The notes: generated by a model from the letters alone, not told the origin. A stretch of DNA of 36,637 bases from an uncultured Bifidobacteriaceae bacterium (GCA_964364975.1 CAYIOH010000001.1:1-36637), one strand, 5' to 3'; positions 7,865 through 36,629 are shown, counted from the stretch's first letter. Translations and numbers: made by a program.

Positions 7865-8827
7865 TCACTCATGGTCAGGTGTTGTTCTTGGTTTGCGCCG
7901 GGATTCCCGTCTTGGCCCCTCGCTCCGGACTTCAGGCTCGCCGCTCCCCGCTCCTTGCTCGCGGCTAGCGACTCTCAGCTTTTGTTCCAAAAGCCGCAGT
8001 GACAAAATGATTTCCGCCAGCGTACGCTGAAAGACGTAGTACCAACCCCTCCAGCCGTCAAAGATCAGGCCTTTGCCGAGCAGCGTGTAAATGAAGACCA
8101 GGAACGGGGCGAACACGATCTTCCGCCGCACCCGATCGGCCAAGGACAGCCCTGTGAGCCCGGACGACGGACAACGGACCACGGACCACGGACCACAGAT
8201 TTCTGCTTTCAGATTTCTGCTTTCCGCTTTGCCCCATGCTCCCTGCTCCCCGCTCCCGGTTCTCATCAAATGCTCCGCTTCCAGCCTCGCATACCGATCC
8301 TGCTCCCTGAGCCAGCGATCCAGCGGCTTGCGATCGTCGTGATAGAGCACCGAGCGCAGCGGCAGGACCTTCCCCTCGATCTGCACCCGATGCCCATGCC
8401 CCTCGTCGCGATAGCGTGCGCGCTCCTTCTGGTAAAGCACCACCCGTGGCGGATAGAGCGACGCCCGCATTGGACGGCCCCAAACGCAGTAACGAAAACG
8501 GACGGAATAGCCGGCCACTCCTTGCTCCGGCCTCCATGCTCCAAGCTCGCGGACCAACTCCTCCGACAGCAGGTAGTCTGCGTCCAAGGAAAGCACCCAC
8601 GGCGTCCGAATGTGCTGCAAGCCGAAGTTGCACTGCTGCGCAAAGGAATCGAACTCCCGCTGTACGATCCACGCCTGCGGCAGCTTCCTCACCAAGTCAC
8701 ACGTCTCGTCCGTGCTGAAGCTATCGACCACCACGATCTCCTTCGCCCACCTCAGCCGCGACAACGTGCGCTCGATGTTCGGCGCTTCGTTGTACGTCAG
8801 AATGAGCGGCGTGATTTGAAGAAGCAT
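7865..8827 (-). CDS. Glycosyltransferase family 2, carrying an internal heptamer-array insertion and a heptamer-derived C-terminal tail
   Basis: 320 aa. TPLILTYNEAPNIERTLSRL...VVVDSFSTDET...LSLDADY GT2 motifs, and a C-terminal membrane-proximal region GWRGWYYVFQRTL. The segment GSGEQGAWGKAESRNLKAEICGPWSVVRCPSSG coincides with the DNA array at 8162-8259. Confidence 0.85.
   Translation of the reverse strand: MLLQITPLILTYNEAPNIERTLSRLRWAKEIVVVDSFSTDETCDLVRKLPQAWIVQREFDSFAQQCNFGLQHIRTPWVLSLDADYLLSEELVRELGAWRPEQGVAGYSVRFRYCVWGRPMRASLYPPRVVLYQKERARYRDEGHGHRVQIEGKVLPLRSVLYHDDRKPLDRWLREQDRYARLEAEHLMRTGSGEQGAWGKAESRNLKAEICGPWSVVRCPSSGLTGLSLADRVRRKIVFAPFLVFIYTLLGKGLIFDGWRGWYYVFQRTLAEIILSLRLLEQKLRVASREQGAGSGEPEVRSEGPRRESRRKPRTTPDHE
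7922..7984. repeat. Heptamer-periodic array (GCTCnnn phase) forming the C-terminal tail region of the GT2 gene
   Basis: GCTCCGG ACTTCAG GCTCGCC GCTCCCC GCTCCTT GCTCGCG GCTAGCG ACTCTCA GCTTTTG, with GCT recurring every 7 nt. Encodes ...RVASREQGAGSGEPEVRSE.... Confidence 0.5.
8162..8259. repeat. Mosaic heptamer array (14 units) inside the GT2 CDS
   Basis: GGACGAC GGACAAC GGACCAC GGACCAC GGACCAC AGATTTC TGCTTTC AGATTTC TGCTTTC CGCTTTG CCCCATG CTCCCTG CTCCCCG CTCCCGG. Confidence 0.85.
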
Positions 8828-8904: not shown

Positions 8905-10135
8905 AGACCACGCAATCCGGTTTTGGGCCTTGCCCGAGCGCCCAGCAGTAAACGGCGTGCATCTGCTCCGCGACGCCCAGCCAACTGTATCTGGTTTCCA
9001 CCAGTTGGCGGCCGCGGGCACCCATCTCGCGTCTCTCCTCATCAGTCTGGCCTATGGCTTGGCCTAAGGCCAAGGCCAGGTGTTCCGCACCGACGTCGAT
9101 ACACCAGCCGCAACGGTGCGTTTCCAATTCTTCCCACGGTGTGGCACGTGTTGTGATCACGGGCACACCACAGGCGAGCGCTTCGCCGACCACCAGGCCG
9201 AAATTTTCGGAGTAGCTTGGCAGAACGAACAGGTCCGCCCCGCGATAAAGCTCCCACCTGGCCTCACCTGCCACTTGCCCAGCGAATTCAAAGTCGTTCT
9301 CAATGTGTAGTTGACGGGCGAGAGCTTCGAGCTCCCGCTGGTGACAGCCTTCATCCCGGCCCGCGACGACGACCCGCCAACCTTGAGGTCGCACACTTGC
9401 CCAGGCGCACAGCAGATCAGGAAGCCCTTTTATTGGGTGTATCCTCCCCAGGTAGAGAAGGACCTTTGATCTGGAAGCGAAGGGCGAAGGACGAAGGGCG
9501 AAGGGCACTTTGCTCTCGGCTCTTGGCTTTTGGCTTAAATCCGGCACTTCGATCCCATTCGGCACGACCGCGATCGCCTGCCGCAGGCCCACCGCGCGAA
9601 ACTCCCGAGCCTCTTCTGGCGAGGTCGCATGCAACACTTGGGCGCACTGCAAGTCACGACGCTGATACAGCACCCAGGCGATCCGTTTCTTCAGCCCTTT
9701 GAATCGGAGTGCCCAGCTGGAGAGCATCCCACGTGGGCTGACGATACGAGGGATTCTGAATTCCCGGCACACTGTGGCCACCGCGTGGTTCGTCAACAAC
9801 CAAAGCCCGGTATCATGCACGAGTTGCACGTCCCCGTTACGAGAACGATCACGGATAGCAGATTTGAATCGCGGTGTCCACTGGGCACACCGCTCAAGCG
9901 CCGAACTGCAAGAGACGAGGGTTGTCTGTGCCGCCGCACGCGAGGGAATCAGAGGCTCGCCAAACCCCGGACCGTAATCGAGCGAAACCACCTCGACCTT
10001 AACGCCATGGTGCCCCAAAGCCTCACACAGTGCTGGCACACTGCGCGAAGGACCACCGCTTTCGGGATGCAATCCCGCAATCGCAAACAGGACTTTGAAT
10101 GAGGTCACGCTAAGCGGCAGCGCTATGCTCGGCAC
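8894..10135 (-). CDS. Glycosyltransferase family 4
   Basis: 413 aa. GT4 N-domain (GGPSRSV...), C-domain LGRIHPIKG, LPSYSENFGLVVGEALACGVPVITT (EX7E-type). A 21-codon low-complexity insert coincides with the array at 9474-9536. The stop codon lies inside the array at 8880-8904. Confidence 0.8.
   Translation of the reverse strand: MPSIALPLSVTSFKVLFAIAGLHPESGGPSRSVPALCEALGHHGVKVEVVSLDYGPGFGEPLIPSRAAAQTTLVSCSSALERCAQWTPRFKSAIRDRSRNGDVQLVHDTGLWLLTNHAVATVCREFRIPRIVSPRGMLSSWALRFKGLKKRIAWVLYQRRDLQCAQVLHATSPEEAREFRAVGLRQAIAVVPNGIEVPDLSQKPRAESKVPFALRPSPFASRSKVLLYLGRIHPIKGLPDLLCAWASVRPQGWRVVVAGRDEGCHQRELEALARQLHIENDFEFAGQVAGEARWELYRGADLFVLPSYSENFGLVVGEALACGVPVITTRATPWEELETHRCGWCIDVGAEHLALALGQAIGQTDEERREMGARGRQLVETRYSWLGVAEQMHAVYCWALGQGPKPDCVVSDG
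9474..9536. repeat. Mosaic heptamer array (9 units = 63 bp = 21 codons) inside the GT4 CDS
   Basis: GAAGCGA AGGGCGA AGGACGA AGGGCGA AGGGCAC TTTGCTC TCGGCTC TTGGCTT TTGGCTT. Translated on the minus strand as SQKPRAESKVPFALRPSPFAS. Confidence 0.85.
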
Positions 10136-13127: not shown

Positions 13128-14537
13128 TCATCGCTCGTCCTTCGTAGTGACCAACTTTCGTACGGCCTCCACCGTTCCTTTCACCGCTTCCTCTAAACTG
13201 TAAGCCCGCATTTTTTCCTCCAGCGCCGGTGTGAAATCATACCCGGCCAATTTCATTTCCCCGAGCGCCATCAACCGGCCAGCCAGCGCTGTGACATCGG
13301 CGACAGGGAAAGCGAATCCGGTTCTTCCTCCCTCAATCAAGTCCGGCGCGCAACCCACAGCCACCGAAACAATCGCCGGCAACCCACACGCCATCGCTTC
13401 GTTGACCACCAGTCCCCACGTCTCGCTCTCTGAAGGCAGGACCAGCACCTCGGCGGCGGCATAATAACGCGGCAGTTCTGACTGGTTCTTGAAGCCAGTG
13501 AAGTGAACGCGCAGATTTTCCCGCGCCGCCAGTTCGCGCAATTCGTTCTCCAGTTCGCCAGCCCCGACGAATACGGCGAGCACATTCATCCCGGTAGGGC
13601 GCGTCACTCCGTGCGCGCCGATAGGTTGAATGGGCGTTCCGGACGGCGCGCACGGAGTGACGCGCCCTACCTTGGGATCCGCACGAAGGGTGAGTTCGCC
13701 TCGCAACTTCGCCATCGCCTGCAGTAAATCTTGCGGCCGCTTCTTCGGTATGAATTTTCCCACGAACAAAACCACTAATGTCCGCCGGCAGTCCTGTGGT
13801 CCTGTAGTCCCGTTGTCCTCATCCGTTACACCCCACTGTCTTCTAATTTCAGCTTTCTGCTTTCGCGCTATTTCTGCTTTCCCCCCGAACCATTCATTAT
13901 TCACAAAATGCGGCGCGAAAAATATTTTCCCCTCCGGCACGCCGTAATGCGCGAGATATTCCGCGTTGCGTCGGCCAACCGGTAGATACCCGGCGAATTG
14001 CCGGAGCAGTAGTCGATAGGCAATGGCCTTGACCGAGCGCTTAAGCCAGGAGCGGGGAGTACCGAGTTGGGAATCGCCCCGCACAAGAATCGGCACGCCC
14101 GCGCGCCGACATGCCCGCACCGCCTGCCAATACGATTTCAAATGCCAACCGCAAACGATGAAGGCGTCGAAGCGCTTCGCGCTTTGACCACTGACCACTG
14201 ACCACTGACCACTGACCTCCATCCCATGCTTTGTTGTCCCGTTGTCCGTTGTCCGCTGTCCCGTGGTCCCAGAAATGATGTCTGCAATTTCTGGCGTATC
14301 GCAGCCGAAGAAATTATTCACGCCAGGCCGTGCTGATACGTTGATCAGGAAACGGTGGTTGTAACCCGACAGCAAGTCCACGTCCCAATCGAACGCCACA
14401 CCAAACCCGGCCTTCCCCTGCTCCGCCGCCGATTGCCGGTGTGCAAAAAAACCCTCCAAATCCACTTCCTTTGCCAACCCGCGAAACCAAGGCGCCAGGT
14501 ATTGGATCGGATGACTTGCCAAAACTCCCAGTCGCAT
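13128..14537 (-). CDS. Glycosyltransferase family 4 interrupted in frame by three repeat-derived segments
   Basis: 469 aa. GT4/GT1-fold motifs FVGKFIPKKRPQDLL, VLPSESETWGLVVNEAMACGLPAIVS. Three non-family-like segments coincide with DNA repeats at 14186-14269, 13791-13881 and 13593-13671. Confidence 0.8.
   Translation of the reverse strand: MRLGVLASHPIQYLAPWFRGLAKEVDLEGFFAHRQSAAEQGKAGFGVAFDWDVDLLSGYNHRFLINVSARPGVNNFFGCDTPEIADIISGTTGQRTTDNGTTKHGMEVSGQWSVVSGQSAKRFDAFIVCGWHLKSYWQAVRACRRAGVPILVRGDSQLGTPRSWLKRSVKAIAYRLLLRQFAGYLPVGRRNAEYLAHYGVPEGKIFFAPHFVNNEWFGGKAEIARKQKAEIRRQWGVTDEDNGTTGPQDCRRTLVVLFVGKFIPKKRPQDLLQAMAKLRGELTLRADPKVGRVTPCAPSGTPIQPIGAHGVTRPTGMNVLAVFVGAGELENELRELAARENLRVHFTGFKNQSELPRYYAAAEVLVLPSESETWGLVVNEAMACGLPAIVSVAVGCAPDLIEGGRTGFAFPVADVTALAGRLMALGEMKLAGYDFTPALEEKMRAYSLEEAVKGTVEAVRKLVTTKDER
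13593..13671. repeat. Perfect 28-bp-stem palindromic element (REP/RPE-like) inside the GT4 CDS
   Basis: GGTAGGGCGCGTCACTCCGTGCGCGCCG (13593-13620) and its exact reverse complement CGGCGCGCACGGAGTGACGCGCCCTACC (13644-13671), with a 23-nt loop. Translated in frame as ...VGRVTPCAPSGTPIQPIGAHGVTRPT.... Confidence 0.9.
13791..13881. repeat. Mosaic heptamer array inside the GT4 CDS
   Basis: GTCCTGT GGTCCTG TAGTCCC GTTGTCC TCATCCG ... TTTCAGC TTTCTGC TTTCGCG CTATTTC TGCTTTC. Shares the 11-mer TTTCTGCTTTC (two copies here) and GTGGTCC/GTTGTCC units with 8162-8259 and 14186-14269. Confidence 0.75.
14186..14269. repeat. Mosaic heptamer array (12 units = 84 bp = 28 codons) with a perfect (GACCACT)4 tract, inside the GT4 CDS
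   Basis: GACCACT x4 (14186-14213) GACCTCC ATCCCAT GCTTTGT TGTCCCG TTGTCCG TTGTCCG CTGTCCC GTGGTCC. Encodes ...TTGQRTTDNGTTKHGMEVSGQWSVVSGQ.... Confidence 0.9.
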
Positions 14538-21590: not shown

Positions 21591-22685
21591 TCAGCCCTTG
21601 GCCGCGCGCCAAAAAGCGCGCGTAGCCGCCCAACAAAACAAACGGCCAGCCCGCAATGCCCTTGCTCGTCCGAAGCCTGCGAGTTTTTGGAGTTCATGCG
21701 CGGCGGCATCCAGACGCAATTGGTCGGAGAAATACCGCAAATACTCGTATCGCAGCTTTGCCTCCGACCATTGACGAGCCGGCGCGGACAGTTCTCCGTG
21801 GTCATTCTTGATTACTTCCAGCAGTGCCTTTGCCCGATGGTCATAGGTGTGCTCTTTAAGCACCTTTTGCCGGGCTGCCGTCGCGATACGGCACCGATCC
21901 TCTTCCCGCGCCAGGAAACTTGCTACGAGATTCTCGATGTCATTTTCGCTCCGGTAACCAACGAAATGTTCGCCTTCGACAAAGCCCAAGGGGGTCAACT
22001 CAGTTGGGACTCTGGTCACCAGCAAGGCCCCTGCCGCCATTGCCTCGAACGTGCGCAGGCTCGCGTCCAGCGGATGATCATCCCGGTTGACGTTCACAAC
22101 GATTTTCGACGACCGGTAAGCTCTCGCCATTTCCTCACGATTATGCCATCGGCTCCATTCATTCGTTCGAAACCGGGCCGCCAATTTAGGAATGATCCTG
22201 CGTCTCGACTCATAAAACCCTTGTTTCATTGATCCGACCCAACCCACTTCGTAAATTCGCTCGCAATCAGGTCCAGCAAAGAGCCTTTGATCTACGGCAT
22301 GCGGCAACAAAAACACTCGCGGGTGGCCGGCGCGCCGAAAGCCGTTCTCAAAGCCTGGATGAAATACGAACGCGTAGTCGAAAAACATCGCCAATCTTGT
22401 GCGCTCCCGCGTTCCAAAGAACGTATCAATGTGGAAATAGGCCGTTGGAAACGGCGCCTGCGCAAATCCCCAAGGCAGAAACCCCGAAGGGGCGGGGTGC
22501 ATTATCAGGTCCGGCTTGAACGAAGATTCCTTCAAGAAAGCCAGCAGATCGCCATCAGGTTCGCCGTGTTCTAGCTGAGCGAACTCGCAAATCATCACCT
22601 CCGCACACCTTTCGAGCGCCTGATAATAACCAAGCTGCTCGCCCCCCAGTGGCTGGCCATCGGAGAGGAATAGCACCCTGTTCAC
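21591..22685 (-). CDS. CgeB-like glycosyltransferase (DUF3880 + Glyco_trans_1_2 type)
   Basis: 364 aa with a GTG start overlapping the upstream stop (GTGA). KIVVNVNRDDHPLDASLRTFEAMAAGALLVT...EGEHFVGY...ARQKVLKEHTYDHRAKALLE is typical of CgeB-family proteins. Confidence 0.6.
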   Translation of the reverse strand: MNRVLFLSDGQPLGGEQLGYYQALERCAEVMICEFAQLEHGEPDGDLLAFLKESSFKPDLIMHPAPSGFLPWGFAQAPFPTAYFHIDTFFGTRERTRLAMFFDYAFVFHPGFENGFRRAGHPRVFLLPHAVDQRLFAGPDCERIYEVGWVGSMKQGFYESRRRIIPKLAARFRTNEWSRWHNREEMARAYRSSKIVVNVNRDDHPLDASLRTFEAMAAGALLVTRVPTELTPLGFVEGEHFVGYRSENDIENLVASFLAREEDRCRIATAARQKVLKEHTYDHRAKALLEVIKNDHGELSAPARQWSEAKLRYEYLRYFSDQLRLDAAAHELQKLAGFGRARALRAGRLFCWAATRAFWRAAKG

Positions 22686-23563
22686 GATCCTGCCCGCTTT
22701 CGCCCTATGCCCAAACTTCGTCTAAGAGGGCGATTCCAATCTACAAGCCAACGGCGCGCCATCTCCCCTCGGCGCTGAAAATAACGCAGGCTCAGGTTTC
22801 TCCGAATGCCCGACGGCGTTAGCCGATAGGTTGCGTCCTCGATCGTATAGCAATGTCGCCATCCACCGGCCAGTCGGCTGTTGTTCTGCCCTTCCTTAAC
22901 TCGACTGGCGGCCATCTCGCCTCCCGGAACATGTGAATAATCATGATTCTGGTGAACAGCCATCACGCTGGCGGAAGCATCCACAATGGGAGCTTTAAGC
23001 CTGGCGGTTTGCCAAATCAACCAGTTGTCGTAGAACGGTCGCCCAATGGCAAAAGCCGGAAGATTTTGATAAAGACCTTTCGGGAATACAAAGTAATCAA
23101 TCCAAGTTGGCAGTTGTTGTTTGCCGCAATCTTGCACTGTCGTTTTCAAGTTCTCGCGCCACTGCGGATCCCGAAACTCCAAAGGTTGAGTAATGCCGAC
23201 ATCCCAGCGCCGGCCAACCATCAGGAACTGCTGGCGCCAGACTGATACTGTTCGCACGGCTGACATGAAATCTTCCATCAGGACGATGTCAGCATTGATG
23301 AAGCACACATGTTGATGGGTGGCCATCCGGGAGGCCATTTGAAAAATATTGTTCAACAACGGGGTGCCATGCTCATTGCGGGCCATTTCTGGCGAATGCC
23401 GCAATCCCAATTCATTGCAGATGTCAGATGTGCCCTCTTCCTCGCCGAAGATGATGATTTCGGGTCTCGGTTGGAGGAGGGTCCAACTCGTGATCGCATT
23501 TCGCTGGATGGTGGCGATATGCGGATTCGTAAAAGGCTTGGGGCACGCGAAGATGGAGATCAT
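22682..23563 (-). CDS. Conserved hypothetical protein (possible GT-A-fold transferase)
   Basis: The ORF is open to 23665. The ATG at 23563 (MISIFACPKPF...IQRNAITSW...FINADIVL) matches how similar uncharacterised proteins start, as I recall. No catalytic motif was confidently assigned. Confidence 0.45.
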   Translation of the reverse strand: MISIFACPKPFTNPHIATIQRNAITSWTLLQPRPEIIIFGEEEGTSDICNELGLRHSPEMARNEHGTPLLNNIFQMASRMATHQHVCFINADIVLMEDFMSAVRTVSVWRQQFLMVGRRWDVGITQPLEFRDPQWRENLKTTVQDCGKQQLPTWIDYFVFPKGLYQNLPAFAIGRPFYDNWLIWQTARLKAPIVDASASVMAVHQNHDYSHVPGGEMAASRVKEGQNNSRLAGGWRHCYTIEDATYRLTPSGIRRNLSLRYFQRRGEMARRWLVDWNRPLRRSLGIGRKRAGS

Positions 23564-23635
23564 ATCAACTAAGGTGGACTTCTTCCAGACGATTGAGGAA
23601 TCCGGCTCCGGTCGTATCTCAATTACACAAGGACA

Positions 23636-23725
23636 CCTCCGGAAACTCCATTTTTTGAAAACCAAACACGCACAAAGGCCAATGAAATCATGTTTGTATC
23701 TTCATGGAATTGGAGTTTCCGGAGG
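23636..23725. repeat. Perfect 15-bp inverted repeat with 60-nt spacer in a low-GC intergenic region
   Basis: CCTCCGGAAACTCCA (23636-23650) and TGGAGTTTCCGGAGG (23711-23725). Lies between the GT9 stop (23740) and the proposed start of the next gene (23563). Confidence 0.8.
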
Positions 23726-23739
23726 TACCCACAACATCG

Positions 23740-24981
23740 TTAGGACAGTAATCCTCGCGCTGCTGCTTCAGCTTGTTCTACCGTGATGTCCAGTATGCAG
23801 TGGGCGCACCCAGCCGTACACTCCCGCATGCACGGCAGGCGTCCCGTCTTAGGGCGAAGCACAATGTGATCAACGCCCCAAGGTCGGAATCTCTCAGCAG
23901 AGTTAGCACTCCAAGCCCCCGACTCAGCGTGACAGCAAAACTCTAGGACTGGAACTCCACCCGCCGCAGCAAGATGCATCGGTCCACTGTCGTTGCCTAC
24001 AAAAAGCTTCGAGTGCCTCAGCAAGGCAGCGGTTCCTCGTAATGTAGCGCGTCCAACGGCATTGACGACTGCCGCCCCCAAGTTCTTTTCCAGTTTCAAG
24101 CCATATTCTTCCTCGCCAGGACCGCCCACAGCTAGAAGCCGACAGTTGTATCGCTCAAGCAGGCGCGCGCCTAACAGAACAAACCTTTCTATCGGCCAGC
24201 ACTTCCAGAAACAGCCGGCCCCTGGTGCCAATGCGATCAGCATATCATTGTGTTCGATACCTGCCCGAGATAAAAAGGTCCGGGCAAAGTCCTCGTCCCT
24301 CTCATCAAGCCACAGTTCTAAGTTGTCACTACCGACTTTCCCACCCAGAAACCGAACCAAATCCAGGTTGTGTTCGACTTCGTGTTTTCGGTCTTCCCCA
24401 AGAATCTGATGCGTGACTAGCCCGTCCAATCCTGATCCACAGGAAGCACCTTCTGAAAAGCGCCTTTGGGCATAAGCCGCGCGGCTAGGAGAGCCACTCA
24501 AATACATCAGGGAAATCGCATGATAACGATCAATACCCCATCGGGGGCATATCGCCAAATCAAACTTCCTTCGCCAAAGGCGATTCCCACAAAGACCCAA
24601 CGCGCGCAGATGCCGCGTTAACTGCGATGGAGGCCGGGGAGTATCTGGATCAAACGTTAGGACTTCATTTACGTAAGGGCAGTGTTCCACCAAGTTGTAG
24701 CAAACGGGCTTGACGACGAGCGTTATCCAAGCTTGCGGCACCGAGTGCCGCAACTCCCGCAACAACGGACTCGTCAGCACTAGGTCCCCAATATCATCCA
24801 GGCGAACCACAAGCACGCTCTTCGCTTGCTCCAGCCTCACCGCACCTTCTCGACCCCGCCGACAGGCAAGCCAGAAAAATGGCTCGGCGAGCCGTCTCAC
24901 AAACGTGGGGGATGTCGCTCGGGACGCGAGTCGGCGTGCTACAGGTATGATCGTCTCAACGGCTATTGACCCAAGAGTCAT
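23740..24981 (-). CDS. Glycosyltransferase family 9 (heptosyltransferase-like)
   Basis: The ORF is open to 25233, but the ATG at 24981 overlaps the upstream stop (ATGA). VLVVRLDDIGDLVLTSPLLRELR, IALAPGAG...KCWPIERF and LFVGNDSGPMHLAAAGGVPVL are GT9 hallmarks. Confidence 0.8.
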   Translation of the reverse strand: MTLGSIAVETIIPVARRLASRATSPTFVRRLAEPFFWLACRRGREGAVRLEQAKSVLVVRLDDIGDLVLTSPLLRELRHSVPQAWITLVVKPVCYNLVEHCPYVNEVLTFDPDTPRPPSQLTRHLRALGLCGNRLWRRKFDLAICPRWGIDRYHAISLMYLSGSPSRAAYAQRRFSEGASCGSGLDGLVTHQILGEDRKHEVEHNLDLVRFLGGKVGSDNLELWLDERDEDFARTFLSRAGIEHNDMLIALAPGAGCFWKCWPIERFVLLGARLLERYNCRLLAVGGPGEEEYGLKLEKNLGAAVVNAVGRATLRGTAALLRHSKLFVGNDSGPMHLAAAGGVPVLEFCCHAESGAWSANSAERFRPWGVDHIVLRPKTGRLPCMRECTAGCAHCILDITVEQAEAAARGLLS

Positions 24982-26099
24982 AGTGCATTCTCGACAACTT
25001 CGAGATATCGCTTCCAAGTATCCTCGCGCAGGCTCAACAGTCGCTCTCGCTCGCTCTCCTGATTGTCGAGCAGACAGTGCAGTTTGTCTTCCACGCCCCC
25101 TACTGTCGCGTCTTTGACATAGAAAACCGGTAATCCCACCGCTTCGACCATCAGCATTCGGGTGTCGGTTCCTACGCTCACCGACGGGATACCGATGCCC
25201 GCCATCGCCACGGCTGCGTGCAGGCGATTGCATATACCGACTTTTGCGCGCGCGACGATTGAAAAATACTCCTGCGAATTCTTCGGCAGAACCCGCGGTA
25301 TGTCACCATTCAGCGCCGAGGCTATTGCATATTCCTTTTGATCATGACACACAAAAAGCAATCTGTGGTTTTGGCGCAGGCTTGCGATCAGATTTCGCGC
25401 TGTACTTCTCCAAGCATTGGGATTAATACTCTGGCCAAAGTCGTAATGTCCCCCTCCCTCCATATAGTTTATCACCACGAGATCCCTGTCAGCACTTCCA
25501 TTGGTGAGTGCTTTTCCGGCAAGGAACGCGGGACAAGGGATAAGCGGACACGAGTGTTCCAAGAATTCAAAAAGACGTTTGGCAAGGCGGTCCCGTGCCG
25601 TGGTAGCTCGGCAATACGCCAAAATTCTCCCCAGATAAAGGGCGTCGTTCTCATTCTCGATGCGCTCGGGCTGTGCTTCCCAAGGAAAACAGGCGCCTGC
25701 ACCCAGATTCAAAACCGGGATGCCCTTATTGCTCAGGCGTCCAACAACGTGATGCCACAGCGGCTCAGCCCACTCGCAGCGCCAGCAGCCGAACCAAGCC
25801 ACTGGGGTGCCACACTGAACAATCAGATCGCAGGTTTCAAAGTGGCTGAACCTCAGGCCAGACGCTGCGCGTTCGATCAATTGAAACACATGCTGGCGAC
25901 CTCTTGGTAAGTAGCGCGCCAGTTGTGCAACCTGCACTGGGTGCCGGTGCGGGTAAACCGTTAGAGGTCGATGTTTGTTAATTGGAACGAACGTTACTAC
26001 TTGTTTCGAAAAAACATGCCTCAACAAAGAGCAGATGCCTTCCCGAATGAAGTCGTCACCGATATTGGTGTTCAACGTCGTAATTAAGCCAACGCGCAT
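24978..26099 (-). CDS. Polysaccharide pyruvyl transferase family protein
   Basis: 373 aa. MRVGLITTLNTNIGDDFI N-terminus and ICNRLHAAVAMAGIGIPSVSVGTDTR near the C-terminus are typical of CsaB/WcaK-type pyruvyl transferases. Confidence 0.7.
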   Translation of the reverse strand: MRVGLITTLNTNIGDDFIREGICSLLRHVFSKQVVTFVPINKHRPLTVYPHRHPVQVAQLARYLPRGRQHVFQLIERAASGLRFSHFETCDLIVQCGTPVAWFGCWRCEWAEPLWHHVVGRLSNKGIPVLNLGAGACFPWEAQPERIENENDALYLGRILAYCRATTARDRLAKRLFEFLEHSCPLIPCPAFLAGKALTNGSADRDLVVINYMEGGGHYDFGQSINPNAWRSTARNLIASLRQNHRLLFVCHDQKEYAIASALNGDIPRVLPKNSQEYFSIVARAKVGICNRLHAAVAMAGIGIPSVSVGTDTRMLMVEAVGLPVFYVKDATVGGVEDKLHCLLDNQESERERLLSLREDTWKRYLEVVENAL

Positions 26100-29420: not shown

Positions 29421-30778
29421 GAGGAAATTCGCCTCGAACTCCATGGAAGCAGCGGCGCGACCAGGCCGAGCCGAGCGTCGTTGACATCGGCGATAATACC
29501 GGCCACTGGTTCGATCGAAAAACTCGCGGCTTGATCCACTGAGAGCACCCCACACACCATCGGGATATCGATGCCAACCCAAAGGTAGTAGCGTCCACGG
29601 TTGAGCAGGTGAGCGGGAAACTCCACCTCGGAAACGTACGCGCCCGCTGGACGCGCTTGGAGTTTGCCTCCGAGCGAATCGCAGTCCGTCGTGGTTAACA
29701 CCACCGTGGTGTCCTGAGCGTGCAAACGGAAACCCAAACGCAATTGCGGCATGGCGGCAGTCAATTCGTAGGTCAGTCGCACACGGAAAGGTTCGTGGTT
29801 CGGCAAGAATGAGGAAGGATTGCCTTCTGAATTGAGAACTTCGACGGAGCGAAGAATCAACGGATGCTCGGCAGCTTTGAGGTTGAGCTTGCCGTTGTCG
29901 GAGTGCCGAGCGGCGCTGTCATTGAGGTAACGGGCGATCACTCTCGCGGGATCGCTCTGATCAGTCAACCGTCCAGCGTTCAGCAGAATGGCGCGAGAGC
30001 AAAGATTGCCAACTGTTCCCATGTTGTGGCTGACGAACAGAACGGTGCGTCCTTGCTGGTGGGCCACTTCGTCCATCTTACCCAAACATTTCTTCTGAAA
30101 CGACGTGTCCCCTACTGCCAGCACTTCGTCCACCACCAGAATTTCCGGTTCCAAATGCGCCGCCACCGCAAACGCCAGCCGCACATACATGCCGCTGCTG
30201 TAGTGTTTCACCGGCGTGTCCAGAAACCTTTCCACTTCCGCAAACGCCACGATTTCGTCGAACTTCTTTTTGATCTCCGCCCGGCTCATTCCCAGGATGG
30301 CGCCGTTCAGGAAGATGTTTTCCCGCCCCGTCAATTCGGGATGGAACCCCGTTCCCACTTCCAACAAACTCGCCACGCGCCCTTTGATGCGTATCTTACC
30401 CGTAGTCGGCTCGGTGATGCGGCTGAGAATTTTGAGCAGCGTGCTTTTCCCCGCGCCGTTGCGCCCGATGATGCCGACCACTTCGCCTTGTTTGACCTCG
30501 AAGGAAACGTCGCGCAAGGCCCAAAAATCTTCGGTTCGTGGAAGACTGGAGTTAGAAGACGGGAGATGGGAGCCGGGAGATCGAACCGAACTGCTATCTG
30601 CTATCTTCGACCTGCCAAAGCCCCAGAGGCGACGGGCGAGGGAGCGGGGAGCACAGAGCGCGGAGCCGGCCTTCTCGGCCAGCACGTCGCGCAGGGCGGT
30701 GTAGCGCTGCCGCTGGGCCTGGTGTTGCAGACGGTATTTCTTGCCGAGGTTCTCGACCGATATGATCGCTTCGCTCAT
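29417..30778 (-). CDS. wzt: O-antigen/polysaccharide ABC exporter ATP-binding protein (Wzt/TagH type) with C-terminal glycan-binding (Wzt_C-like) domain and a 42-codon repeat-derived insert
   Basis: The ATG at 30778 ([17 protein letters not shown]) is the family-typical start; the ORF is open to 30913. Walker [10 protein letters not shown], signature YSSGM, Walker B ILVVDE. A ~170-aa C-terminal beta-rich extension follows. The insert SALCAP...NSSLP coincides with the array at 30541-30666. Confidence 0.9.
30541..30666. repeat. Mosaic heptamer array (18 units = 126 bp = 42 codons) inside the wzt CDS
   Basis: GAAGACT GGAGTTA GAAGACG GGAGATG GGAGCCG GGAGATC GAACCGA ACTGCTA TCTGCTA TCTTCGA CCTGCCA AAGCCCC AGAGGCG ACGGGCG AGGGAGC GGGGAGC ACAGAGC GCGGAGC. 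Confidence 0.8.
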
Positions 30779-33477: not shown

Positions 33478-34743
33478 TCAGTTTTGTTGGATTGATGAGG
33501 CGGCTGCCGCTTTCGGCGGCGAAAGCGCTTCCAGTCTGGGAACAAGCCGTTCCACGATCTCATGCACGCGAGTTTGGAAGCTTTCGAACGAAAAATCATT
33601 AAGGCTGGCTGAAACAAATCCGCGAGGCCACTTCAGCGCCGCCAGGATTCCTTCCCGGATCTCTGCGGGGTTCCTCGGGTCAACGATGAATCCCAGCTTC
33701 CCACCGCCCACCACCTCGCAGCTCGCGTCGGCTTTGCTCGCAACGACCGGAATTCCACAAGCCATCGCTTCCAAGTAAACGATACCGAATCCTTCACCCC
33801 AGCCCGGCATCACGAAGGCATCCGCCATGCGGTAATGATCCACTTTTTCGTCCTCTGGGATTCGGCCGGCGAAAACGACCTGCGCGGGGTTGAGCGTGGA
33901 GCGTGGAGCGTGGAGGGTCGGGGAGTGGGGCTTCGATACCTCACCCAACCCTCTCCCCGATCGATGCGGAGAGGGCGATGAGTTAGCGCGCGCGCAGTCG
34001 GTCACGGAAAGGCCGAGTGATTGCGCCTTGTTCATCAAGCGCTCCCGGTCCGTTCCATCGCCGACGACGAGGTAGCAAAGACTTGGGATTTCTTTCGACA
34101 AATCAGGCAGAACTTCCATGACTCTGTCCACTCCCTTGTACCGTTCCTGCGCCGAAAGGCGTGCCACGGTCAGCAGGACTGTCCGGTCGCGCAGACAATA
34201 ACGGTCGAGCAGTTGCGAGTTTTTTGGGCCGGGGCGGAAAGCAGCCAACTCGATGCAGTTGGGCAAAATGAAAGTCCGAACGCCGTCCAATCGCGCCCAG
34301 CCCAGAAATCGCTGCTTCGTAAACTCGCTTACCGCAATCAGGGCGTTGATTCTCCTGACCAATCGATTGACCAGCCAACTGCGAGTCGGTTGCCACGCGT
34401 CAATGCCATGGATTACCAACGCGACCGGCGCACGGCAAAACAATCGCGCCGCCAATGCGACCGATAGCAGATTGATGTGGCCGCAAATCAGAAGGTCAGG
34501 GGTCGGAAGTCGGAGAACGGTGGTCAAAACCGTTTTGATATAGCGCAGTTTGCTGCCGACGCCGGAGGTGACGTAGTTAAGCTTCGTCGGCAGTGCGCCG
34601 GGCGGCTCGGGCATCAAGCGTGGAACAGCCACAACTTCTTCAACGTCCTGGGCCGCACAGAGCGCGGTCAGCAGATCGCGATTGAACTTCGCGATGCCTC
34701 CGAAACCGCCGAAGGCGTCCGTCACGAGAACCAGAATGCGCAT
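33478..34743 (-). CDS. Glycosyltransferase family 4 with ~40-codon repeat-derived insert
   Basis: 421 aa. MRILVLVTDAFGGFGGIAKFNRDL N-terminus; VMPGWGEGFGIVYLEAMACGIPVVAS C-domain. The segment VTDCARANSSPSPHRSGRGLGEVSKPHSPTLHAPRSTLNPA coincides with 33892-33982. The start ATG shares one base with the asnB stop (TGATG). Confidence 0.8.
   Translation of the reverse strand: MRILVLVTDAFGGFGGIAKFNRDLLTALCAAQDVEEVVAVPRLMPEPPGALPTKLNYVTSGVGSKLRYIKTVLTTVLRLPTPDLLICGHINLLSVALAARLFCRAPVALVIHGIDAWQPTRSWLVNRLVRRINALIAVSEFTKQRFLGWARLDGVRTFILPNCIELAAFRPGPKNSQLLDRYCLRDRTVLLTVARLSAQERYKGVDRVMEVLPDLSKEIPSLCYLVVGDGTDRERLMNKAQSLGLSVTDCARANSSPSPHRSGRGLGEVSKPHSPTLHAPRSTLNPAQVVFAGRIPEDEKVDHYRMADAFVMPGWGEGFGIVYLEAMACGIPVVASKADASCEVVGGGKLGFIVDPRNPAEIREGILAALKWPRGFVSASLNDFSFESFQTRVHEIVERLVPRLEALSPPKAAAASSIQQN
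33892..33982. repeat. Heptamer array (GAGCGTG)3... plus small hairpin, inside the GT4 CDS
   Basis: GAGCGTG x3 GAGGGTC GGGGAGT GGGGCTT CGATACC TCACCCA ACCCTCT CCCCGAT CGATGCG GAGAGGG CGATGAG. CCCTCTCC (33949-33956) pairs with GGAGAGGG (33968-33975). Confidence 0.8.
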
Positions 34744-36629
34744 CAGTTTCGAGTGAACCGATCGTAAACCTGCCTGGCCCAGCCACGAAGGCCGCGAGAA
34801 TTCGCGCGGGGTTGAGCGTTGAGGGAAAAGGTTTGAGAGTCGCGCAAAAGCCAGTCGCGGACCGGGACGGAAAAGCCGGTCTTGGGCCGGGCAAGCAGGG
34901 CAGCAGGGAGCGGAGAGCGGGGAGTAAGGGCCATGTCGCGCTTGGTCGGAGGCGTCTCGCTGGCGAGCAACGGAGCGACCGCGTGCAGGACCGCCACGTC
35001 CACCAGCGGCACGCGGATTTCCAGCGAGTGAGCCATGCCTGCCCAGTCCGAATCACGCAGGAGTTGGTTGCGCATGTACCAGCACATCTCGAGAGCACTG
35101 ACGCGCACGCGGCCAGAGTTCAGAGGACAGAAGTCAGAATTTGGAACTGATCGCCGATCTCTGATCGCCGATCTCTGAGAAAGCAGACCAGCGGTCAAAT
35201 TCAACAAGGCAAGGGTGTTGAGCTCTTCCCAGCCTTCGCGCACGAGGTCCGGCTCGAGCAATTCAGGCAGTTCCCAAGGCATGAACAGACCACGGCGGAG
35301 CAGGTAGGCATCGGCGTAGCTGGAGCCGTATTCGAGCAGCCCGGCGTATTTGGGCGAGGTGAAGCGATTGAGCACGGGGGTGGAAATCACACGAAGCGCG
35401 CGGCCAAGCGAACGGGCAAAAGGCAAAGGGCGAAGGGCCTTCACGAGGCGCGGAATTTCGCGAAAGCTGGGATAGCCGCCGAACAATTCGTCGCCGCCCA
35501 AACCGGACAGGGCGACCTTCAGCGAAGCGCGCGCGGCGGCGAAGCTGACGAAGTAGGTGTTGACGCCATCCGTGCTCGGCTGATCCATTGCGTCGAAAAG
35601 GCGATTAACGTGAGTTTGAAAATCTCGACGCGCGACCCAAATGGTCTGGTGTTGTGCGCCGTATTGGCGGGCGACGGCTTCGGCGAACGGGACTTCATCG
35701 TTGGCCGTCCCACGAAATTCCTCGAATCCCAGTGTGACCGTGCGCAAACGGCCGCCTTGCTCGGCGGCCAGCGCGGCAAGTGTCGTCGAGTCCAAGCCGG
35801 ATGACAGAAACACACCGACGGGGACATCGGCGATCAGGTGGTGCCGGATTGTGTCCTGGAGAGCGAAGCGCAACAAGTCGTGGAGTTGAGGGCTGGGGGC
35901 TGAGGGTTGAGAGTTCGAGCGTTCGGCATGCGAAAGGATTTCCGTGATTGAGCAGAATTTGCGCTCCCGTCGCCCGCCGCCCTGGCCAACCCAAAGCGTC
36001 GCACCCGGCGGCAAGGACCGGATGGTCTTGAACAGCGTGTAGGGTTCAGGCACGTGTCCCCACAGGAAGAAACCGACGTGCCCGGCCGGATCGGGTGTCT
36101 TCTCAATGTATCCGCCCGCGAGCAACGCCTTCACTTGCGAGGCCGCTCGAAATGTCCTGCCGTCATCCGCAAAATATAGCGGTTTGATGCCGAACGGGTC
36201 GCGCGCCAAAAGCAAGCCGCGTTGCTCGCCATCCCAGAGCGCAAAGGCATACATGCCGCGCAGATCGTTCATCATCGCCTCGCCTTTCTGCGCGTAGAGC
36301 CGGAGCAACACTTCCGTGTCGCTGTTGGATTTGAACACATGGCCTTGTTGTTCGAGCGCCGCGCGCAGTTCGCGGTAGTTGTAAATCTCGCCGTTGAAAA
36401 CGATCGCCAGTTGAAACTCCGGCAGCAGCATGGGCTGCGCACCGGCCGGGGACAGATCAATGATTGAAAGCCGGCGATGGCCAAGACCAACGCGGTGCAA
36501 AGGATCGAACCACTCTCCTGCCCCATCAGGACCACGCAGCGTCATGTGGTCGCGGATGGCGCGCAGTTCCCCGTCATTCACGCCGGGCGCGTCAGAGTTG
36601 TAGGCGAAGATGGCTGCTATGCCACACAT
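34743..36629 (-). CDS. asnB: Asparagine synthase (glutamine-hydrolysing) family amidotransferase
   Basis: 628 aa. MCGIA N-terminal nucleophile, HRRLSIIDLS, GEIYNYRELR, and the PP-loop VGVFLSSGLDST. Three clear repeat-derived segments and one tentative segment lie in the C-terminal half. Confidence 0.9.
   Translation of the reverse strand: MCGIAAIFAYNSDAPGVNDGELRAIRDHMTLRGPDGAGEWFDPLHRVGLGHRRLSIIDLSPAGAQPMLLPEFQLAIVFNGEIYNYRELRAALEQQGHVFKSNSDTEVLLRLYAQKGEAMMNDLRGMYAFALWDGEQRGLLLARDPFGIKPLYFADDGRTFRAASQVKALLAGGYIEKTPDPAGHVGFFLWGHVPEPYTLFKTIRSLPPGATLWVGQGGGRRERKFCSITEILSHAERSNSQPSAPSPQLHDLLRFALQDTIRHHLIADVPVGVFLSSGLDSTTLAALAAEQGGRLRTVTLGFEEFRGTANDEVPFAEAVARQYGAQHQTIWVARRDFQTHVNRLFDAMDQPSTDGVNTYFVSFAAARASLKVALSGLGGDELFGGYPSFREIPRLVKALRPLPFARSLGRALRVISTPVLNRFTSPKYAGLLEYGSSYADAYLLRRGLFMPWELPELLEPDLVREGWEELNTLALLNLTAGLLSQRSAIRDRRSVPNSDFCPLNSGRVRVSALEMCWYMRNQLLRDSDWAGMAHSLEIRVPLVDVAVLHAVAPLLASETPPTKRDMALTPRSPLPAALLARPKTGFSVPVRDWLLRDSQTFSLNAQPRANSRGLRGWARQVYDRFTRN
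34801..34842. repeat. Short heptamer array (about 6 units) near the 3' end of asnB
   Basis: TTCGCGC GGGGTTG AGCGTTG AGGGAAA AGGTTTG AGAGTCG. Encodes SQTFSLNAQPRANS. Same GnGTTGA unit family as 35883-35924. Confidence 0.55.
35114..35197. repeat. Mosaic heptamer array (about 12 units) inside asnB
   Basis: CAGAGTT CAGAGGA CAGAAGT CAGAATT TGGAACT GATCGCC GATCTCT GATCGCC GATCTCT GAGAAAG CAGACCA GCGGTCA. GATCTCTGATC (35156-35166) is the exact reverse complement of GATCAGAGATC at 8850-8860. Confidence 0.8.
35883..35924. repeat. Heptamer array (6 units = 42 bp = 14 codons) inside asnB
   Basis: GAGTTGA GGGCTGG GGGCTGA GGGTTGA GAGTTCG AGCGTTC. Occupies codons 236-249 exactly (ERSNSQPSAPSPQL), just upstream of the PP-loop. 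Confidence 0.75.

Follow-up and report, generated by a model that had tools for sequence, protein, structure and literature searches.

A perfect hairpin in a glycosyltransferase gene is probably an inverted REP doublet from a family dispersed in Verrucomicrobiota

Introduction

Repetitive extragenic palindromes (REPs) tagged by GTAG were described by Di Nocera et al. (2013, BMC Genomics 14:522, PMC3733652), together with their homodimers and heterodimers and with the 'REPtrons' of REP-associated tyrosine transposases (RAYTs). In that survey, a minority of REPs lies inside open reading frames (ORFs), where dimers encode 20–30 amino acids, and the verrucomicrobium Opitutus terrae has the most intragenic GTAG repeats. 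Some families are species-specific and others are common to several species, while the Rickettsia palindromic elements (RPEs) are classed there as CGTC repeats without a dedicated transposase. Here we analyse a 36,637-nt stretch of DNA from an uncultured Bifidobacteriaceae bacterium (GCA_964364975.1 CAYIOH010000001.1:1-36637; the whole stretch is called the window), in which a perfect 79-nt hairpin lies in frame inside the gene of a family 4 glycosyltransferase (GT4; this protein is called GT below). The hairpin is most probably an inverted doublet of a GTAG-type REP unit, which we term A (hence A-A′), resembling the REP doublets known to form hairpins (REPINs), and belongs to a family that is dispersed in Verrucomicrobiota and associated with a conserved RAYT of the HUH/Y1, TnpA_REP type.

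The family comprises unit A and a related unit B. Like the GTAG REPs of PMC3733652, these units have a GTAG head and a short stem-loop, form head-out homodimers and heterodimers with variable spacers, and flank a RAYT. They differ from GTAG-17 to GTAG-20 of O. terrae, which give peptides such as VGPALAAG...GERPPY, and the peptides of the A/B family are absent from the supplement of that paper. In addition, the A/B family spans 84 assemblies, and the filter on spacer length modulo 3 that is described below is not reported in PMC3733652. REPINs with their RAYT (Bertels & Rainey 2011, PLoS Genet, PMC3116915; later RAREFAN work) likewise consist of inverted REPs around a short spacer, giving a long hairpin, and those REPs also flank the RAYT. 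In classical REPINs the whole unit is copied and the spacer is fairly conserved, whereas the A/B family has spacers that vary strongly between genomes and more A-B′ than A-A′ doublets (54 versus 31). The mosaic, opposed pairing of two REP types and an HUH enzyme with a catalytic tyrosine are also found in the REPs and bacterial interspersed mosaic elements of E. coli with their TnpA_REP (4ER8; Messing et al. 2012, PMC3479197). Beyond the GTAG head, the A/B repeats share no sequence with E. coli REPs. As far as is known, the latter are essentially extragenic.

Two further kinds of element are similar in behaviour. Like MITEs (miniature inverted-repeat transposable elements), the doublets are short and non-autonomous and have a variable interior between conserved terminal inverted repeats; unlike MITEs, they show no evident target-site duplication, involve a Y1/HUH rather than a DDE enzyme, and have terminal repeats each of which is itself a stem-loop. 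RPEs, since the work of Ogata and colleagues in 2000, are said to be palindromic repeats that sit in frame in functional genes, are translated and are tolerated at surface positions; they are longer than the A-A′ element. An earlier, sequence-only reading of this DNA had equated the hairpin with the situation of the RPEs. The in-frame insertion into a gene stands and the behaviour is alike, but the GTAG head and the association with RAYT genes, which the units flank, set the family apart from the CGTC repeats. Literature searches on the exact unit, on the peptides and on Pedosphaera together with REP returned nothing relevant. The kind of element is already known; its sequence family, breadth and spacer filter appear undescribed in the literature searched.

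Results

A perfect hairpin in an open GT4 reading frame

A repeat search of the window returned two inverted-repeat arms of 28 nt each, at 13593–13620 and 13644–13671, that are 100% complementary and lie 23 nt apart. The 79-nt hairpin that they form is the longest and the sole perfect local inverted repeat of the window, and the sequence-only reading had given its position, its arms and its frame within an open GT4 ORF correctly. The features of the locus are as follows.

13128–14537, minus strand: host GT4 (GT-B) glycosyltransferase, 469 aa, assigned by Pfam, orthologue alignment and structure model
13593–13620, plus strand: left REP unit, type A, GGTAGGGCGCGTCACTCCGTGCGCGCCG, with its head GGTAG at 13593–13597; equal to the consensus that 168 A units of other genomes give; folds alone as a small hairpin behind the head (−15.0 kcal/mol)
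13621–13643, no strand: spacer of 23 nt, the loop of the long hairpin; 11 of 23 positions shared with the copy in orthologue P0015
13644–13671, minus strand: right REP unit, type A, inverted; head read from 13671 on the minus strand; 28 of 28 positions complementary to the left unit
13592–13672, no strand: putative inserted unit of 81 nt, or 27 codons, consisting of the doublet and one base per side

The RNA fold of the hairpin region has an energy of −75.4 kcal/mol, compared with −36.7 ± 3.4 kcal/mol in shuffles (z = −11.4). Beyond the arms, five more base pairs follow a 2-nt bulge, and pairing reaches about 13588–13678; this outer ATCCC/GGGAT pairing is probably fortuitous, because the copy in P0015 is without it. 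The arm has no second match elsewhere in the window at up to 3 mismatches, and none of 100 shuffles matches. The bases just outside the window copy are C and T, so that the exact ends of the insert are not proven; a unit of 81 nt is favoured because intragenic A-A′ spacers of 17, 20 or 23 nt make 58 plus the spacer divisible by 3. A scan for terminators and promoters gave nothing at the hairpin, with counts not above those in shuffles. The sole Rfam match, mir-5856, was rejected as a generic match to a long hairpin, since it reached 35 bits against a gathering score of 90 on both strands.

The ORF at 13128–14537 stays open across the hairpin and reads ...RADPKVGRVTPCAPSGTPIQPIGAHGVTRPTGMNVLAVFVGAGE..., that is, ...RADPK-VGRVTPCAPSGTPIQPIGAHGVTRPT-GMNVLAVFVGAGE.... 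Residues 290–315 of GT are wholly encoded by the element and codon 289 is shared with it; VTPCAPSGTPIQPIGAHGVTR is a predicted, REP-encoded tryptic peptide of the full-length protein. The second sense frame through the element is also open (GRARHSVRA...RRARSDAPY), and the third contains stop codons.

GT has the hallmarks of a GT4 enzyme, namely a Glycos_transf_1 domain, a GT-B fold of two Rossmann domains and an EX7E motif. Specifically, Pfam PF00534 (Glycos_transf_1) matches with E = 1.6e-29 over profile positions 46–155 only, the match starting at position 46 because the insert interrupts it, and a Foldseek search with the structure model returned the GT-B enzymes MshA, BshA and PimB′ (MshA 3c4q, E = 9e-17, target-normalised TM-score 0.77). 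All 42 invariant columns of 105 orthologues are kept in GT, including E380 of EX7E, and E372 is also present. As far as its sequence allows a judgement, the gene is apparently intact, with translation and activity predicted. Homologues of GT found by protein search are 388–750 aa long and, where named, are all labelled Verrucomicrobiota, the best non-self homologue being 66–71% identical.

The arm belongs to a dispersed family of 28-nt units

We scanned representative genomes for exact matches to a 20-nt core of the arm. At least 117 stretches, belonging to 84 assemblies, contain the core, and almost all of them are labelled Verrucomicrobiota (Limisphaerales, Pedosphaera, subdivision 3, Udaeobacter and Chthoniobacterales). 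Within single assemblies, the core was observed on at least six contigs in one case; 20 kb of P. parvula contain five units, and the 36.6 kb of the window contain one doublet. The hairpin had previously been read as a selfish palindromic repeat sitting in frame in a functional gene, a view that a unique arm or a segment conserved among orthologues would contradict; the arm core is dispersed, and short orthologues of GT are without the segment.

Two related 28-nt units emerged from 0.9 Mb of fetched DNA, unit A (GGTAGGGCGCGTCACTCCGTGCGCGCCG, the window arm) in 168 copies and unit B (GGTAGGGCGGGCAGTCCTCTGCCCGCCG) in 59 copies. Each unit is built of a GTAG head followed by its own small palindrome, which in A has the stem GGCGCG/CGCGCC and in B a 9-bp stem (−20.9 kcal/mol alone). 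In the head, the 168 A units have G at position 2 in 162 cases, T at position 3 in 141, A at position 4 in 155 and G at position 5 in 164. Among the copies sampled through the exact core, no position of the unit is conserved in fewer than 84%, and most are conserved in more than 96%, whereas the spacers vary.

The units form 86 head-out inverted (convergent) doublets, comprising 54 A-B′, 31 A-A′ and 1 B-B, and 55 units are unpaired. The window element is a homodimer, A-A′. In such doublets the spacers are mostly 17–23 nt long and differ in sequence between genomes; the three JAHCLO01 doublets (in L001, L018 and L036) all have 23-nt spacers, of which two share GGGGAAGCG, and copies per genome are few. 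The base just outside each head is A or T in 71% of cases, compared with a background of 42%. The target-site duplication that the sequence-only reading had envisaged as a possibility was not seen in the flanks of 141 copies, where the only regularity was this A/T preference at position −1. The units have the architecture that defines GTAG-type REPs, with a terminal GTAG and a short imperfect palindrome by the head, and share with them mostly extragenic positions and a RAYT association in related genomes; the doublets have the geometry of a REPIN, with two inverted REPs around a short spacer that can form one long hairpin.

The perfect stem had been taken as a sign of recent insertion or of active maintenance. 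Among the 31 A-A′ doublets, drawn from different genomes, 12 have perfect arms, and no more than one mismatch is present in 18. Because perfect arms are common across the family, the perfect stem of the window copy dates nothing; recency is thereby lost as a conclusion and maintenance comes nearer to the data, the arms being conserved family-wide. Arm perfection reflects a constraint on the whole family, plausibly recognition by the RAYT.

Some records with the unit carry the titles Bifidobacterium, Klebsiella, Hyphomicrobiales, Sulfotelmatobacter or Angelobacter (L014, L015, L030, L031, L034, L054, L058, L064, L076-L078, L113 and L117). Their G+C content is 0.54–0.64, like that of the Verrucomicrobiota loci, and their titles may be binning or naming errors.

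RAYT genes are flanked by the units

Two RAYT-like ORFs, L085:1318-1782 and L012:3857-4345, are both bracketed by A/B doublets. With 67 and 79 bits, respectively, they align to almost the entire profile of NCBIfam NF047646 (REP-associated tyrosine transposase), and their best match in the PDB is E. coli TnpA_REP (4ER8, E = 8.6e-6), aligned over the HUH and tyrosine motifs. The family to which they belong has 1537 homologous clusters at E ≤ 1e-10; many members are named RayT at source, and one is from Pedosphaera parvula. In all six RAYT loci examined, including that of the isolate P. parvula Ellin514, A or B units lie within 250 nt of the gene.

In L012 (4344–4348) and L085 (1781–1785), the stop codon of the RAYT ORF is the TAG within the downstream REP head (GGTAGGG and GATAGGG, respectively), and both ORFs therefore end inside their own repeat. 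In P. parvula Ellin514 (ABOX02000006.1), a 358-nt tandem repeat (L119:6999-7798; 2.2 copies, 96% matches) has an A unit in each copy and lies about 2–3 kb upstream of the RAYT gene.

Intragenic copies and the reading-frame filter

An element was counted as intragenic when a stop-free frame spans it with at least 240 nt on each side. By this measure 33 of 141 elements (23%) are intragenic, and the other 108 are not spanned by a long open frame. The coding density of bacterial genomes is typically about 85–90%. The observed share is far below that value, from which we infer selection against genic copies.

Ten of ten intragenic hosts tested are real genes, with Pfam domains on both sides of the element. 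They encode a GlnRS/GluRS, a MetH (with two elements), a pyridine-nucleotide disulfide oxidoreductase, a methyltransferase, a DNA methylase, a peptidase U32, a radical-SAM enzyme of the CofH/MqnC type, a Ser/Thr kinase, a PrpD and another GT4. Consistent with the sequence-only reading, which had recognised such peptides as recurrent translations of palindromic repeats, GRARHSVRA, RRARSDAPY, VGRVTPCAP and GAHGVTRPT recur in unrelated real genes.

Two of the three frames through an A or B unit are without stop codons, in either orientation. Furthermore, A-A′ spacers of 17, 20 or 23 nt (equal to 2 modulo 3) occur in 8 of 9 intragenic doublets, compared with 5 of 22 others (Fisher p = 0.0012). This bias fits selection that keeps only those copies that preserve the frame.

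On a single contig, two paralogous Ser/Thr kinase genes, L110:1-2355 and L110:3201-7568 (minus strand), each contain a partly decayed insert derived from A, GRARHS[V/E]RAEHAQNEDGVTRPT. It is located directly after the DFG motif, in the activation loop.

The element occupies a predicted, hypervariable loop of GT

In the alignment, GT orthologues of 388–395 aa are without three segments of the window protein, and the hairpin peptide is one of these segments. The AlphaFold model of GT, made from the 105 orthologues, has a mean predicted local distance difference test score (pLDDT) of 87.4, with 334 residues at or above 90, and low pLDDT is limited to the three insert regions. The hairpin peptide (residues ~285–317, pLDDT 45–50) is positioned between helix 269–284 and strand 318–324. 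On this model, it is predicted to sit in an unstructured, permissive surface loop, for which the sequence-only reading had proposed to look. Across the family, the loop is hypervariable, with 15–65 residues and a mode of 17–19.

The unit is present in 2 of 120 GT orthologues only, the window GT (P0001) and P0015, which comes from the metagenome-assembled genome GCA_026125285.1. In P0015, an A-A′ doublet with a 23-nt spacer lies in the same loop and in the same frame. Its arms agree with the window arms at 26 of 28 and 28 of 28 positions (54 of 56 together), while the spacers agree at the 11 of 23 positions listed above. The junction codons differ, as the P0015 element directly abuts AVFVG, whereas the window has GMNVL between. 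The two proteins are 68% identical, each has closer relatives (77–78%) without the element, and in the nearest relatives of both the loop has a different content. The two copies are more parsimoniously explained by independent insertion into a permissive loop.

Other repeat-like peptides occur in the same loop of P0008, P0036, P0030, P0003, P0023 and P0009 (alignment columns ~650–710), among them LTPALSPGEREN...PLLGERVGVRA, GRADLPVGQDARQRVP and HGARLWSQTQSQHGG...ALHTTALQS, and the loop seems to collect many kinds of repeat. The GT4 gene directly upstream of the P0015 orthologue has an in-frame A-B′ doublet at aa 230–254 (L001:9282-9356). Between genes, the same locus has an unrelated inverted-repeat family, AGCGGTG...CACCGCACTCCA, in three copies.

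The same GT has two further in-frame inserts, derived from 7- to 8-nt tandem repeats (14185–14217, 14233–14270 and 13790–13819) and including a perfect TGACCAC array of 4.7 copies. They encode GTTGQRTTDNGTT...EVSGQWSVVSGQ and EDNGTTGPQDC. The short orthologues are without them, and peptides related to theirs are found at the same loops of P0018, P0023, P0024 and P0002. Slippage at a perfect heptamer array in the GT gene might in principle change the reading frame.

Weighing of the explanations

Several observations count against an A-A′ REP doublet of a RAYT-associated family. Sampling by the exact 20-nt core leads to an overestimate of arm conservation, as at least one arm had to match exactly; partner arms and the outer eight bases of the unit are free of that selection. 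The window contains one doublet only, no B unit was found in it, and a tblastn search of it for a RAYT gave noise only. The spacers differ widely between genomes, a poorer fit to classical REPINs, which are copied whole. The RAYT matches fall just under the equivalog cutoff of NF047646 (80 bits), and Pfam Y1_Tnp misses the RAYT-like ORFs (E = 0.21). Finally, the data contain no empty-site allele of the GT gene and no observed mobility, the closest relative being as distant as given above; no near-identical allele is expected in metagenomes, because the protein search covering them gave none above 71% identity.

A regulatory use of the element, in which a stable mRNA hairpin or a DNA cruciform controls GT through pauses of the ribosome between structural elements, an RNase III/E site or protein binding, appears unlikely. 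The strength of the fold (z = −11.4), arms that are near-invariant over 84 assemblies while the spacers drift, and the second orthologue with the same element in the same loop would all suit such a role, and effects on mRNA stability and binding of gyrase or IHF have been reported for REPs in other bacteria (PMC3733652). However, recognition by a conserved RAYT explains the conservation of the arms equally well, no T-run of a terminator follows the stem, and the nearest GT orthologues have no element, or other repeats, at the site. The unit also occurs in unrelated genes (those for GlnRS/GluRS, MetH, the kinase, PrpD and the methylase) and mostly lies between genes. That GT is instead a decaying pseudogene, inactivated by the hairpin and the two other repeat inserts, seems very doubtful to us. 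It is suggested by the three separate inserts in one gene, by a Glycos_transf_1 match cut to profile positions 46–155, and by the fact that P0001 departs from the consensus at a few sites, A182 and Y184 among them, which 90% or more of the orthologues conserve. Yet 469 codons are open through all three inserts, 42 of 42 invariant columns are retained with E380, E372 is present, the core outside the inserts is modelled confidently (the 334 residues at pLDDT ≥90), and many orthologues have inserts at the same three loops.

Should the segment be ancestral protein sequence, or one ancient insertion inherited by the window GT and P0015, the shared loop, frame and 23-nt spacer length of the two copies would be accounted for. 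Such descent is most improbable given that only 2 of 120 orthologues have the element, that these two are 68% identical to each other with closer element-free relatives at 77–78%, and that their junction codons differ; moreover, the arms agree at 54 of 56 positions, yet the spacers at 11 of 23 and the host proteins at 68%. Since the contig is of the metagenome type and chimeric reads can yield perfect palindromes, an artefact of assembly or amplification has to be named as well. It is hardly credible, as the same 28-nt unit and doublet geometry recur in independent assemblies (84 projects or bins) and in the isolate P. parvula Ellin514, and the reading frame is preserved.

Discussion

For an A-A′ REP doublet, the most probable course of events is as follows. 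A RAYT acting in trans on the single-stranded hairpin would copy the doublet into the GT gene, at the DNA for the loop between the first helix and the second strand of the C-terminal Rossmann domain. The copy would survive there, as two of three unit frames are stop-free, as its length (most likely 81 nt) preserves the frame, and as the ~26–27 added residues fall in a permissive, hypervariable loop. The peptide would then be a tolerated by-product without adaptation, and most other intragenic insertions would have been purged by selection.

It is conceivable, though quite unlikely, that intragenic doublets are more than passengers. The RAYT might insert them and excise them precisely at permissive loops, producing reversible length variants of surface-polysaccharide glycosyltransferases and of other proteins, or the near-invariant hairpin might serve as an RNA control point. 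In two lineages the same element has hit the GT loop independently, and several other repeat families have landed there too, which could point to targeting rather than mere tolerance.

The odd peptides GRARHSVRA, RRARSDAPY, VGRVTPCAP, GAHGVTRPT, GGQRTARPT, RRAEDCPPY and GRAGSPLPA are translations of the REP family. In Verrucomicrobiota of soil and freshwater they turn up within predicted proteins and 'hypothetical' ORFs, where annotators can flag or mask them. In addition, the 28-nt unit, present in at least 84 assemblies, extends the REP-RAYT picture to lineages of the Pedosphaera and Limisphaerales types, and the breadth of the A/B family could be useful for studies of how REPs and their transposases remain matched over long periods. 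The modulo-3 spacer bias gives a compact and quantitative indication that selection acts on selfish DNA in genes, and leaves the known mechanism unchanged.

Other repeats of the window

A second local inverted repeat, at 23635–23726, has 19-nt arms that are 95% complementary and 54 nt apart. It overlaps the 3′ end of the ORF at 22682–23665, fills most of the gap before the ORF at 23740–25233 and has a T-run after its left arm; no copy was found in any fetched locus. Heptamer arrays are located at 8161–8257, 9477–9536, 30557–30666, 33892–33915, 35147–35178, 35414–35438 and 35887–35911, in frame in at least five other real genes of the window's cluster, which encode a GT2, two GT4s, a Wzt-type ABC transporter and an asparagine synthase (three arrays). 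In other genomes, REP doublets have comparable heptamer runs at their flanks, as in L117, L068, L034 and L112.

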